Of a DNA stretch of 7,777 bases, positions 2,884 to 3,873 are shown piece by piece. Both the position numbers and the translations under genes were made by a program. This stretch comes from a virus. Taxonomy: Duplodnaviria > Heunggongvirae > Uroviricota > Caudoviricetes. The stretch is from the IMG/VR virus record IMGVR_UViG_2703718812_000020, positions 1-7,777 of that record; one strand, given 5' to 3'. The notes under the pieces were generated by a model. That model made no database searches. It worked only from the letters and a program-made list of their open reading frames with translations, and was not told where the DNA came from. Positions within the stretch are counted from its first letter, which is position 1. The number at the start of each line of letters is the position of its first letter.

Positions 2884-3873
2884 ATGAAGAAAAAATACGA
2901 ACTGGTTGTTAAAGAGATAAATAATTACCCGGATAAGATTGTTGTTACTGTGGCACTTGAAATTGGCGGGCATCCGTCGTTGTTGTTGCCACATGTGGCG
3001 ATTAGTCTTGACCGTACTGAAGGTGCCACGCTGGAGTTCTACGAAGCTGAGGCGAAAAAACAGGCGAAGCAGTTTTTCATGGATATTGTTGCCGGGTTAT
3101 GCGAAGGGGATGAACCGTCACCGGAAAAGCGCCCCGTAATTTTAGATGCGCAGGATGTATTGATAACCTACAAAGGAAAGCTACCGGGAAGAATTACTTG
3201 TTCTCTGAAGATGCCGCCGTCAACACTGCGGTCAGAAAAAGATGATGTTGAATCGCGTATTGAAAAACTGGAGTGCTATATCGCTGAATTGAAAAAAAGC
3301 ACCCCAACAAAAAATGAGGTGCTTGCAGCAGACGAAATGAAAGAAGCTATTTCTGATCGCGCGGCGAATCTAAGCTGCGCTTCATGGTTGAAAGAGCATC
3401 TTCAGCAGCCTGAAAAAAAACGCCGCGATGAGCAGTTTGCTGCGTTTTACGATTATTGCCGGAAAGTGATGAGCAGAAATCTCGCAGAGTGTTTCAGTAT
3501 TCATAATGATAATTTCAGTGACCTGGAATGGGAGTGTAACCGGCCATCCTTTGTTGTATCCGGTGATGCTGGGAAAATAACCATCTCAGAAAATGGAAAA
3601 GTAACACCGCCATCGCACCAGCATAGTGAGGAGCTCATTGAATTTGCCATTGATTACCTGAAGAACAATAAAAAGCAGGGGCTGATGAAGTGCATTGGTC
3701 GTTGCATGGGATATCTGCAGATAGCTGCTGAGATTGAAGCGCTGGCCAGTGGTGCGGACAAGGATGCAGTTGTGCGGGAGGCTCTTCTTCGTGATTTTGA
3801 TAATCCGCCCTTTAAAAAAGTGCCGGCTTACTGGTTTCATCCAGGACTGACTTATCTTAAAGGACGTATATAA
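2884..3873 (+). CDS. hypothetical protein, 329 aa, no recognisable domain; moron between holin and endolysin
   Basis: Long uninterrupted ORF starting 4 nt after the holin stop. No signal peptide, TM segment, Walker motif or catalytic signature that I can recognise; central stretch looks coiled-coil-like. The first 100 nt are about 38% GC by hand count, visibly AT-richer than the flanking lysis genes. Confidence 0.7.
   Translation: MKKKYELVVKEINNYPDKIVVTVALEIGGHPSLLLPHVAISLDRTEGATLEFYEAEAKKQAKQFFMDIVAGLCEGDEPSPEKRPVILDAQDVLITYKGKLPGRITCSLKMPPSTLRSEKDDVESRIEKLECYIAELKKSTPTKNEVLAADEMKEAISDRAANLSCASWLKEHLQQPEKKRRDEQFAAFYDYCRKVMSRNLAECFSIHNDNFSDLEWECNRPSFVVSGDAGKITISENGKVTPPSHQHSEELIEFAIDYLKNNKKQGLMKCIGRCMGYLQIAAEIEALASGADKDAVVREALLRDFDNPPFKKVPAYWFHPGLTYLKGRI

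Follow-up and report, generated by a model that had tools for sequence, protein, structure and literature searches.

The first-pass annotation of a 7,777-nt stretch of tailed-phage DNA (positions 1 to 7,777 of IMG/VR record IMGVR_UViG_2703718812_000020; hereafter the window) drew attention to an ORF of 329 codons lying between the genes of a pinholin and a SAR endolysin, two genes which it regarded as normally adjacent. The locus raises the question of what such a gene is and what it does within a lysis cassette. We are practically certain that the gene is real and that, in identity and architecture, it is a long-form member of the YdfR family; for its function we make a tentative proposal, which is weighed below against the alternatives.

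The slot gene and its junctions

Inspection of the sequence bore out the geometry originally described: the ATG of the ORF at 2884 is separated by four nucleotides (AGCG) from the holin stop codon (TAA, 2877-2879), and the ORF ends at 3873, leaving a 42-nt spacer before the endolysin ATG at 3916 (Table 1). At the local base composition, an open frame of 330 codons would occur by chance with a probability of about 3e-8. The G + C content of the ORF is 45.1% overall and 38.0% in its first 100 nt, compared with 54.2% for the holin gene and 54.7% for the endolysin gene (54-55% across holin, endolysin and Rz), and the AT-richness reported earlier was thus confirmed. The suggestion that the gene is a moron is consistent with this deviant composition but not with the search for a promoter and terminator of its own: no sigma-70-like site was found on the plus strand between 2400 and 2884 by consensus scan, which is a weak test, and the same scan detected only a weak 6-bp hairpin within the ORF and no terminator belonging to the gene. 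The scan found no promoter- or terminator-like site separating the holin gene from the ORF either, and the two share the late strand, as the claim of co-transcription implied. We infer that transcription of the slot gene occurs only as part of the Q-dependent late operon and that its translation follows closely on that of the holin.

A Kyte-Doolittle scan of the product (19-residue window) reached a maximum of 1.22, against 1.83 in the holin, and revealed neither a transmembrane segment nor a signal peptide, in agreement with the earlier description; a secreted or membrane protein was rejected on this ground. The product is thus probably a soluble 37-kDa cytoplasmic protein made late in infection.

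The upstream gene matches Pfam PF04971 (P21 holin S) as well as PHROG holin families. Its extent was corrected to the 68-aa gene listed in Table 1, as in the near-identical O103:H2 locus, where PGAP annotates a 207-nt class II holin; the upstream Met that gives the 71-aa antiholin isoform is missing from it. The N-terminus of the endolysin is hydrophobic (Kyte-Doolittle maximum 1.77, 17-residue window from residue 11).

A GGGAG Shine-Dalgarno (SD) sequence at 2870-2874 is embedded in the final codons of the holin gene. The junction GGGGAGAGTAA-NNNN-ATG was found to be kept in all variants of the slot gene and in K-12, and the same junction forms the S-R junction of VT2-Sakai, where the slot gene is absent. 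Evidently, the slot gene takes over the holin-embedded SD that the endolysin uses in slot-less cassettes. In slot-bearing cassettes the endolysin is preceded by a leader, cctgataaatatccATG, which is conserved across loci and has no purine-rich SD, so that translation of the endolysin could depend on something else.

Table 1 Features of the slot gene and its surroundings in the window
Feature	Position	Strand	Basis
Class II (S21-type) pinholin gene, 68 aa	2673..2879	+	PF04971, E 1.7e-32
Translation-initiation junction of the slot gene (SD, TAA stop, 4-nt spacer)	2870..2883	+	Sequence
Long-form YdfR-family gene	2884..3873	+	Intact ORF, 329 aa plus stop
N-terminal DUF1327 domain, aa 1-85, three strands and a long helix	2884..3138	+	PF07041; AF2
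Variable mosaic middle, aa 86-212	3139..3519	+	Alignments A1, A2
Conserved C-terminal domain, aa 221-329	3544..3870	+	Alignment; AF2
42-nt spacer: partner-deletion scar and endolysin leader	3874..3915		Alignment to L021
SAR-type endolysin, 177 aa	3916..4449	+	PF00959, E 1.4e-24

Distribution and slot occupancy

DNA related to the ORF, as the gene or a variant of it, was present in 2389 of 5426 complete E. coli genomes (about 44%). It occurred at 5520 places in these genomes, against 8856 for the S21-type holin; among phage records, DUF1327 was found in 101 of the 427 that carry an S21 holin; and the gene order in the K-12 Qin prophage is essQ, a 4-nt gap, ydfR and rrrQ. The premise that pinholin and endolysin genes are normally adjacent is therefore weak for E. 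coli, and the gene of the window occupies the standard S-R slot of S21-type lysis cassettes. The synteny survey proposed by the first-pass annotation accordingly showed the slot to be commonly filled, but not always, VT2-Sakai having no gene there.

All relatives examined were located on the late strand between the Q antiterminator and the lysis genes, often upstream of the holin gene and with other genes intervening. Their holins belong to Phage_holin_2_1, Phage_holin_2_3 and Phage_holin_8 plus 3_7, and their endolysins are of the lysozyme or GH108 type. The Q-to-holin interval of these relatives is an accessory hotspot, in which HicAB and ParE modules are also found.

Family membership and relatives

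Residues 1-100 match Pfam DUF1327 (PF07041), scoring 131.8 bits where the gathering cutoff is 25 (E 1.1e-38), and the protein matches PHROG 1085 from end to end (residues 1-329 against all 296 profile positions, E 2.2e-180). All eight PHROG matches of the protein are families of unknown function, and none belongs to the lysis category. The view that the product has no recognisable motif was thus overturned, since it carries DUF1327 and belongs to the YdfR family, PHROG 1085. That no function is established was correct; the match is a family match, but not one to a well-characterised family.

The gene is 99.9% identical to its counterpart in E. coli O103:H2 12009; with that of the Stx2a phage Stx2_95 it shares 96% identity at the DNA level. 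K-12 YdfR shares 41% identity over aa 1-74. A protein encoded in Salmonella-type prophage contexts (P0144, on L017/L018) also matches PHROG 1085 end to end, and hhalign related the two N-domain groups with a probability of 89% (E 2e-6). Since the N- and C-terminal domains are arranged alike in Salmonella-type homologs of 30-36% identity, the long form seems to be the ancestral one.

An exhaustive HMMER search of 1.84 billion cluster representatives matched only 73 clusters, all of the YdfR family, plus one repeat-protein artefact, and no fusion of the family to a domain of known function turned up among them. A scan of GTDB species representatives gave just 3 loci. For the 329-aa protein, PDB sequence and profile searches and NCBIfam returned no credible match, and a Pfam scan of 15 family members detected DUF1327 alone. 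The exact protein of the window is absent from a collection of 15 billion proteins. No protein record exists from the O103:H2 reference locus because PGAP calls the locus a pseudogene there, a call that stems from a short family model and not from a lesion, the frame staying open. In RefSeq the long genes are annotated as 336-nt "incomplete" pseudogenes, and the C-terminal domain is therefore hidden from protein databases. A literature search for DUF1327, ydfR and YdfR recovered essentially one experimental study (PMC13232886), and a survey of the lysis cassettes of Stx phages does not mention the gene (PMC8136144).

Taken together, the gene is less unusual than it was first thought to be, since YdfR/DUF1327 is already catalogued and commonly fills this slot in E. 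coli prophages; it is the full-length, two-domain form of that family and not a broken YdfR.

Domain organisation, selection and integrity

Three parts make up the protein: a DUF1327 head, a middle that is mosaic and contains a coiled coil, and a C-terminal domain that is conserved and has no known relatives. At 329 aa it is far from the size of about 100-115 aa of a single-domain DUF1327 protein. The middle is made up of a linker, a coiled coil (aa 121-140), an optional 35-aa insert (aa 141-175) and a helix (aa 176-210), modules that are present or absent in alignments A1 and A2, in which L129, E130, L136 and K138 are near-invariant; AF2 gave helices of low confidence in this region. The middle module is held in common with P0184, a protein with another N-terminal head. 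The C-terminal domain is modelled as a three-strand meander and four helices (AF2, pLDDT 91.6, pTM 0.83), and eleven invariant residues in it (H247, G272, R273, L278, Q279, A281, P309, K311, W317, P320 and Y324) persist down to about 30% identity in Escherichia-type and Salmonella-type homologs. The model of this domain had no fold match in PDB or BFVD and the domain no match in Pfam; no database names it. The AF2 model of the full-length protein was poor (pLDDT 52), and a BFVD search with it gave noise only. The profile and structure searches recommended at first pass thus yielded DUF1327 and PHROG 1085 from Pfam and PHROG, and nothing from PDB or BFVD.

Forms of 329, 296, 287, 268, 305, 211 and 183 aa were found, in addition to N-only and C-only genes, both of which can fill the same slot as intact genes. 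The short N-only forms are frequent, and most phage records with the family keep the N-domain alone. For the whole gene, dN/dS was 0.30-0.38 against the 329- and 296-aa forms. The ratio was 0.24-0.59 (median 0.30) for the N-domain and 0.14-0.22 (about 0.2) for the C-domain, with a median of 0.26 for the latter over 32 unique sequences; as judged from these ratios, the C-domain is under purifying selection. Disruption of the ORF in related prophages, which would have spoken for a non-functional gene, was seen at only 13 of 80 IMG/VR C-domain loci, the other 67 (84%) being intact ORFs that start at the S junction.

A convergent partner gene and its loss from the window

Genes with the C-domain ancestrally have a partner, a convergent gene of about 105 aa belonging to PHROG 1853. 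Only 4 of 50,697 phage records contain this gene; all 4 are among the 5 records with a C-domain, and the two genes are adjacent each time. It is also present at 42 of the 80 IMG/VR C-domain loci and in Salmonella-type prophages. A scan found no consensus promoter for it.

Alignment with the Stx2 phage 86 locus (L021) accounts for the spacer that follows the slot gene. Positions 3840-3892 of the window align to L021 2797-2849 and positions 3893-3933 to L021 3260-3300 (41/41), while the 410 nt of L021 between the two blocks, inside which the PHROG 1853 gene lies, are absent; a remnant of the 3' end of the partner is left at about 3882-3892. The C-domain gene and the PHROG 1853 gene are an ancestral pair, from which the window has lost the partner by deletion, the spacer being the scar. 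About half of the C-domain loci, including the window, are partner-less and yet have an intact gene under purifying selection. Disruption was recorded at 9 of 38 loci without the partner and at 4 of 42 with it, a difference which is not significant (Fisher p = 0.13).

Comparison with known members

YdfR of the K-12 Qin prophage (b1555, P76160; PF07041) has a homologous N-domain and occupies the same slot, between essQ and rrrQ, with the same 4-nt junction and SD. It is 103 aa long, its domain being followed only by a short helical tail, and the ydfR stop codon overlaps the start of rrrQ, whereas the window protein adds a coiled coil and a 109-aa C-terminal domain and is followed by the 42-nt spacer. 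Stx2_95 (BCI50300, 329 aa) and Stx2 phage 86 (orf5, YP_794052, 268 aa) encode proteins of the same N + C architecture at the same position, but the 268-aa form differs in its middle module and retains beside it the convergent PHROG 1853 gene that was lost from the window. The slot gene also resembles the lambdoid late accessory genes (stx, nanS-p, bor, and ant between R and Rz), which likewise are non-lysis genes of deviant composition in or beside the lysis cassette; it differs from them in having no detected promoter or terminator and in depending on the SD of the holin gene.

Possible functions

Several explanations of the gene were considered. One is that it is passenger DNA in decay, a recombination-scrambled remnant without current function. 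The extreme mosaicism of the family (seven length forms besides N-only and C-only), the 13 disrupted loci, the prevalence of N-domain-only genes in phage records, the PGAP pseudogene call and the lack of ydfR expression in K-12 under standard conditions would all fit. Decay is nonetheless very improbable, given that dN/dS is well below 1 in both domains, that at 84% of the C-domain loci the ORF is undisrupted and has its start precisely at the S junction, that the architecture and the eleven invariants persist to about 30% identity, and that the PGAP call is due to a short family model applied to an open frame. Another is the cargo protein suggested at first pass, or a virulence factor, which lysis would set free in the manner of Stx and NanS-p. 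In related phages the gene is on a common late transcript with stx, and a nanS-p-like esterase adjoins, but the absence of a signal peptide or transmembrane segment, of any match to an enzyme or toxin family and of any structural match leaves this option without support, and the sole experimental lead is an intracellular partner; we consider it extremely unlikely. A modulator of lysis timing would be a soluble protein that binds the charged cytoplasmic tail of the pinholin or controls translation of the endolysin. Such a role is suggested by the position directly after the holin gene with a conserved 4-nt junction and a common SD, by the holin of the window lacking the upstream Met of the antiholin isoform, by the SD-less endolysin leader of slot-bearing cassettes, and by precedent, as soluble antiholins encoded beside holin genes exist (P1 LydB, T4 RIII). 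The likeness to these antiholins is positional only: they are small to medium-sized soluble proteins made beside the holin at the same time, whereas the YdfR family is tied neither to one holin family nor to a holin-adjacent position. A specific antiholin would be expected to co-vary with its holin, but at least three further holin families and two types of endolysin are found with the relatives, whose genes are often placed upstream of the holin gene with other genes in between; the same holin type is found without the slot gene (VT2-Sakai), dual-start holin cassettes are found with it, and no lysis-category PHROG was matched. A pinholin-specific timing role is weakened because the relatives accompany these other holins and endolysins, and we regard lysis timing as rather improbable. 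A dedicated partner of the pinholin was rejected, the family being found with several holin types.

It is also unlikely, though somewhat less so, that the gene and the convergent PHROG 1853 gene together make up an accessory module serving defence, superinfection exclusion, counter-defence or a toxin-antitoxin-like switch between lysogeny and lysis, of which the window keeps the late-strand component only. The co-occurrence of C-domain and partner is strict and extends over E. coli and Salmonella-type prophages, the Q-to-holin hotspot also houses HicAB and ParE, the gene is AT-richer than its neighbours, and the antisense orientation suggests that the partner may be expressed when the late operon is silent. 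Against this, the best match to any defence-system model of PADLOC-DB 2.0 (Avs2, E 0.0087, 11.8 bits) is not credible, which tells against the defence option raised earlier; no consensus promoter was found for the partner or the slot ORF; about half of the C-domain loci retain an intact gene under purifying selection without the partner; and disruption is not significantly linked to loss of the partner (9/38 versus 4/42, p = 0.13). In a broader form, and with similarly low probability, the YdfR family as a whole could ancestrally be a two-gene late-operon module of the lambdoid phages of Escherichia and Salmonella, made up of a three-part protein (a DUF1327 head that binds RNase E/RNA, a coiled coil and a C-terminal domain of orphan fold) and its PHROG 1853 partner, and thus an undescribed switch or host-takeover system. 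The partner would presumably be expressed while the late operon is off, and the module would couple host RNA decay, or defence and immunity, to the transition from lysogeny to lysis; the window would then hold a partner-less derivative, and K-12 ydfR would be a truncated relic.

The reading that we tentatively prefer, while considering it possible and no better than that, is that the protein is an accessory adaptor acting on host RNA metabolism and not a part of the lysis machinery. The DUF1327 head would dock on RNase E at its catalytic N-terminal half, on RNA, or on both, the coiled coil would bring slot-protein molecules together into an oligomer, and the C-terminal domain would offer a second interaction surface, perhaps ancestrally tied to the PHROG 1853 product whose gene is deleted from the window locus. 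Around the time of lysis, late phage transcripts or host transcripts would then probably be degraded or processed differently. T4 Srd and T7 gp0.7 are phage modulators of RNase E, and such modulators are typically encoded by early genes. The slot gene is late, in which it departs from them, and this counts against an adaptor.

In K-12, a bacterial two-hybrid assay revealed an interaction of YdfR residues 1-72 with Rne(1-597), Strep-YdfR co-purifies Rne(1-598), and nucleic acid resistant to DNase is abundant in eluates of YdfR (PMC13232886). The interacting stretch aligns with aa 1-74 of the window protein at 41% identity, a level at which the RNase E interaction may not be conserved. RNase E binding was reported for the overproduced 103-aa K-12 protein only, overproduction had almost no effect on the transcriptome, the RNA co-purified with YdfR possibly came from a contaminant according to the authors, and ydfR is silent in K-12 under standard conditions (PMC13232886). 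The N- and C-domains need not work as one adaptor, because N-only and C-only genes are both intact in the slot. The sequence and fold searches with the C-domain gave no hint of a function, which, like the poor full-length AF2 model, also speaks against the proposal. If the K-12 result transfers, the likeness to Dip, Srd and gp0.7 would lie in RNase E binding; no significant similarity to Dip or Srd in sequence or fold was found in BFVD or PDB, a Srd-like BFVD match (E 1.4, probability 0.16) being noise. The phiKZ protein Dip is reported to bind RNA-binding segments in the C-terminal scaffold of RNase E and not the catalytic half (PMC4980113).

In many Stx phages the slot gene shares its late transcript with Shiga toxin. 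Should the RNase E link fail for the phage forms, the gene would be one more accessory gene in a well-known hotspot. Should it hold, a late protein of temperate phages would act on the main mRNA decay enzyme of the host, and its action would coincide with the production of toxin and virions.

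Identity of the ORF between the holin and endolysin genes

The ORF between the holin (S) and endolysin (R) genes starts four bases after the holin stop, and 42 nt separate its end from the endolysin ATG, in agreement with the first-pass annotation. That the ORF is AT-richer than its neighbours, as also remarked there, was borne out by a G + C content of 45.1% overall and 38.0% for the first 100 nt, against 54.2% for the holin and 54.7% for the endolysin gene. The product is 37 kDa with a pI of 6.1. Its earlier description as a protein with no TM segment or signal peptide was accurate; since the Kyte-Doolittle mean does not exceed 1.22 in any 19-residue window, it should be soluble and cytoplasmic. 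The product had also been thought to carry no recognisable motif, but Pfam revealed a DUF1327 domain (PF07041) at residues 1-100 (131.8 bits, cutoff 25), and PHROG 1085 (function unknown) covers it from end to end (E 2e-180).

The NCBI name for the family is "YdfR family protein". The founder of the family, ydfR in the Qin prophage of K-12, likewise lies between a holin (essQ) and a lysozyme gene (rrrQ), 4 nt after essQ, and K-12 YdfR is 41% identical to residues 1-74 of the window protein. A prophage of E. coli O103:H2 12009 is nearly identical to the window, its ORF differing by one base (V20A), and Stx2a phage Stx2_95 carries an intact 329-aa gene, 96% identical to the ORF and likewise between holin and endolysin. 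Among 1.84 billion cluster representatives, exhaustive HMMER scanning recovered only 73 clusters, with Escherichia, Shigella and Salmonella as named sources. The ORF is a new, long-form member (carrying both N- and C-terminal domains) of a catalogued, functionally unassigned family that routinely fills the S-R slot; a specialist familiar with essQ-ydfR-rrrQ would not be surprised by its position.

The window holin has one start only (68 aa), with ATA (window 2664-2675) at the codon for the antiholin upstream Met of related 71-aa holins. Dual-start holins persist in other slot-bearing cassettes, so start number is uncorrelated with the slot gene. At one locus (L100, IMGVR_UViG_2521172732_000005) a single 341-aa ORF begins in the holin and continues into the YdfR family gene, which is either a genuine fusion or an assembly error.

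Coordinates of features in the window, the slot protein (aa) and compared loci (L-numbers)
Feature	Position	Strand	Remarks
STnc100 sRNA (RF02076)	221-393	+	Rfam, 104 bits vs gathering score 47; upstream of esterase gene
NanS-p-like sialate O-acetylesterase gene	531-2380	+	SASA + DUF6645; intact 573-aa ORF from 659
Shine-Dalgarno GGGAG	2870-2874		Within last holin codons
Holin, S21-type class II	Stop 2877-2879		Upstream of slot ORF; PF04971, E 1.7e-32
Slot ORF	2884..3873	+	Intact, 329 aa plus stop
Endolysin leader	3896-3915		Equivalents in L002, L006, L012, L013, L020, L021, L026
Endolysin (phage lysozyme)	ATG 3916		Downstream of slot ORF; hydrophobic N-terminus, SAR-endolysin-like
Endolysin-Rz insert	4450-5091		About 640 nt
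Hairpin at insert start	4540-4572		Strong, 15 pairs, then T-rich tail
74-aa ORF	5583-5807	+	Overlaps Rz end; PHROG 2571
DUF1327 head	aa 1-85		Alignments
Linker	aa 86-120		Alignments
Short coiled coil	aa 121-140		L129, E130, L136, K138 nearly invariant
Optional 35-aa insert	aa 141-175		Alignments
Helix	aa 176-210		Alignments
C-terminal domain	aa 221-329		Strongest conservation
PHROG 1853 partner	L021 2840-3154; L008 5521-5838; L011 2378-2713; L017 6807-7124	-
DUF4406/DUF7768 gene	L008 4689-4973; L011 1089-1487; L016 5639-6004
336-nt pseudogene annotation	L001 9001-9336; L012, L013, L014 each 1201-1536		RefSeq/PGAP

The S-R slot

The premise that pinholin and endolysin genes are normally adjacent is weak for E. 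coli. Of 5426 complete E. coli genomes, 2389 contain ORF-related DNA, with 5520 places in all (at least 80% of the ORF covered in 491 genomes), against 8856 holin places in 2419 genomes, and a collection of 50,697 phage records contained S21-type holin in 427, DUF1327 in 101 and the C-domain in 5; the slot-gene-to-holin ratios from these counts are rough. On these counts, E. coli lambdoid prophages commonly carry a gene in the S-R interval.

The junction GGGGAGAGTAA-NNNN-ATG is kept across all slot variants, and is the S-R junction of VT2-Sakai, a phage without the slot gene. The slot gene thus sits precisely at the S-R boundary and has taken over the initiation signal used by R when there is no slot gene. 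A conserved leader, cctgataaatatccATG, precedes R in slot-bearing cassettes; it lacks a purine-rich Shine-Dalgarno sequence and is common to endolysin alleles starting MN(T/A)KIK or MSAKIK; the VT2-Sakai endolysin uses a Shine-Dalgarno sequence embedded in the end of the holin gene.

Domain architecture and ancestry

Alignments of 25 and 15 relatives gave the architecture, a five-part mosaic. Invariant residues of the C-domain are H247, G272, R273, L278, Q279, A281, P309, K311, W317, P320 and Y324. The head and C-domain layout is retained at 30-36% identity in distant homologs (P0144, P0145, P0149, P0165 and P0166), whose heads align with DUF1327 in profile-profile comparison (probability 89%, E 2e-6), and P0144 matches PHROG 1085 end to end; these data suggest that the two-domain form is old. 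K-12 and many Stx1 and Stx2c phages have YdfR proteins of 103-115 aa, which appear to be truncated derivatives of this form. C-only genes, encoding 185-222 aa, also begin at the S junction.

The product of the 74-aa ORF at the Rz end shares 48% identity with the head of protein P0184 (L022, 4001-4546), which continues from that head into a YdfR coiled-coil/helix module with 43% identity to aa 114-204. This module is thus portable among different small N-terminal heads of late-operon genes.

In the confident AlphaFold2 model of the C-domain (pLDDT 91.6, pTM 0.83), built from a diverse 11-sequence alignment, a three-stranded meander leads into four helices, and the tail, rich in proline and aromatic residues, is ordered. 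The C-domain is without named relatives: the best Foldseek E value in BFVD was only 0.17, and profile searches of PDB sequences and Pfam gave no match.

Selection and database annotation

By the Nei-Gojobori method against four independent alleles, the C-domain gave dN/dS values of 0.14-0.22, the head 0.24-0.59 and the middle 0.34-0.56 (the 268-aa form, whose middle is non-homologous, was left out for that part). Among unique intact IMG/VR sequences the C-domain had a median of 0.26 (n = 32) and the head one of 0.30 (n = 13), with many head comparisons close to saturation at synonymous sites. The 80 IMG/VR loci with the C-domain comprise 29 with intact N- and C-domains, 38 intact C-only and 13 disrupted or fused.

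At 4 of 4 long-form loci inspected, RefSeq/PGAP covers only the first 336 nt, labelled as a pseudogene, "YdfR family protein, incomplete, missing C-terminus". The frames there are open for 268-329 codons, with dN/dS below 1. The call appears to be an artefact caused by a short family model rather than a sign of decay, and it keeps the C-terminal domain out of view in protein databases.

Convergent partner and wider context

In Salmonella-type prophages and Stx2 phage 86, the C-domain gene is directly bordered at its 3′ end by a gene of PHROG 1853 (about 105 aa, no Pfam match) on the opposite strand, whose products there share 40-46% mutual identity. Of the 80 IMG/VR C-domain loci, 42 contain this partner; in the phage collection it was found in 4 of 50,697 records, all within the 5 with the C-domain and adjacent to it in 4 of 4. 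Its homologs, mainly from Salmonella and E. coli, are all hypothetical proteins. Window positions 3840-3892 and 3893-3933 align to either flank of the phage 86 partner gene with 410 nt absent between them, and the partner's final ten or so bases, including the stop, remain at about 3882-3892. The 42-nt spacer (window 3874-3915) is thus a partner-deletion scar plus the endolysin leader.

Distant homologs lie on the late strand between the Q antiterminator and holin genes, often close to HicAB, ParE or DUF4406 genes, and occur with other holins (Phage_holin_2_3, Phage_holin_8 + 3_7) and other endolysin types. The constant context is the promoter-proximal late operon beside the lysis genes, rather than the pinholin. 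In Salmonella-type prophages, a DUF4406/DUF7768 gene is often directly upstream of the YdfR family homolog, sometimes overlapping it, and the interval from Q to these two genes holds HicAB or ParE/HTH modules.

Possible function

The sole experimental lead on function is a 2026 study of K-12 YdfR (PMC13232886), in which a two-hybrid screen yielded residues 1-72 three times, Rne(1-597) interacted with the full-length protein and Rne(1-598) co-eluted with Strep-YdfR. YdfR eluates were rich in DNase-resistant nucleic acid, and overproduction changed the transcriptome or growth little (PMC13232886). It is this interacting stretch that the window protein conserves. This conservation, the late-operon position, the predicted cytoplasmic location, the coiled coil and the second conserved domain lead us to prefer, tentatively, the reading that the window protein is a late-expressed oligomeric adaptor, whose head would contact RNase E and/or RNA and whose C-domain would contact a second partner.

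We ranked the alternatives by estimate. Highest among them, though rather unlikely, is that PHROG 1853 and the slot gene form a two-gene accessory, defence or switch module; the strict co-occurrence of PHROG 1853 with the C-domain and the hotspot context favour it, but PADLOC gives no match and genes without the partner stay intact. A soluble modulator of lysis timing would suit the position in the cassette and the lack of a Shine-Dalgarno sequence in the endolysin leader. However, the family accompanies several types of holin and its PHROG matches include none of the lysis category, making this role doubtful. It is quite improbable that the gene is a functionless remnant, which dN/dS and intactness contradict, and that the protein is a released cargo we consider the most improbable of all.

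In the literature searched, four points appear to be undescribed: the probable ancestral status of the long form, the conservation of a C-domain without fold relatives, the pairing of the C-domain gene with a convergent gene, and the systematic RefSeq pseudogene calls on long genes.

Other features of the window

At a near-identical esterase locus, PGAP annotates the gene as frameshifted, its N-terminal part apparently being out of frame. The small ORFs of the endolysin-Rz insert overlap one another and include hydrophobic stretches (PHROGs 6632, 3246 and 1115, function unassigned); in other phages the R-Rz gap holds the anti-repressor gene ant.
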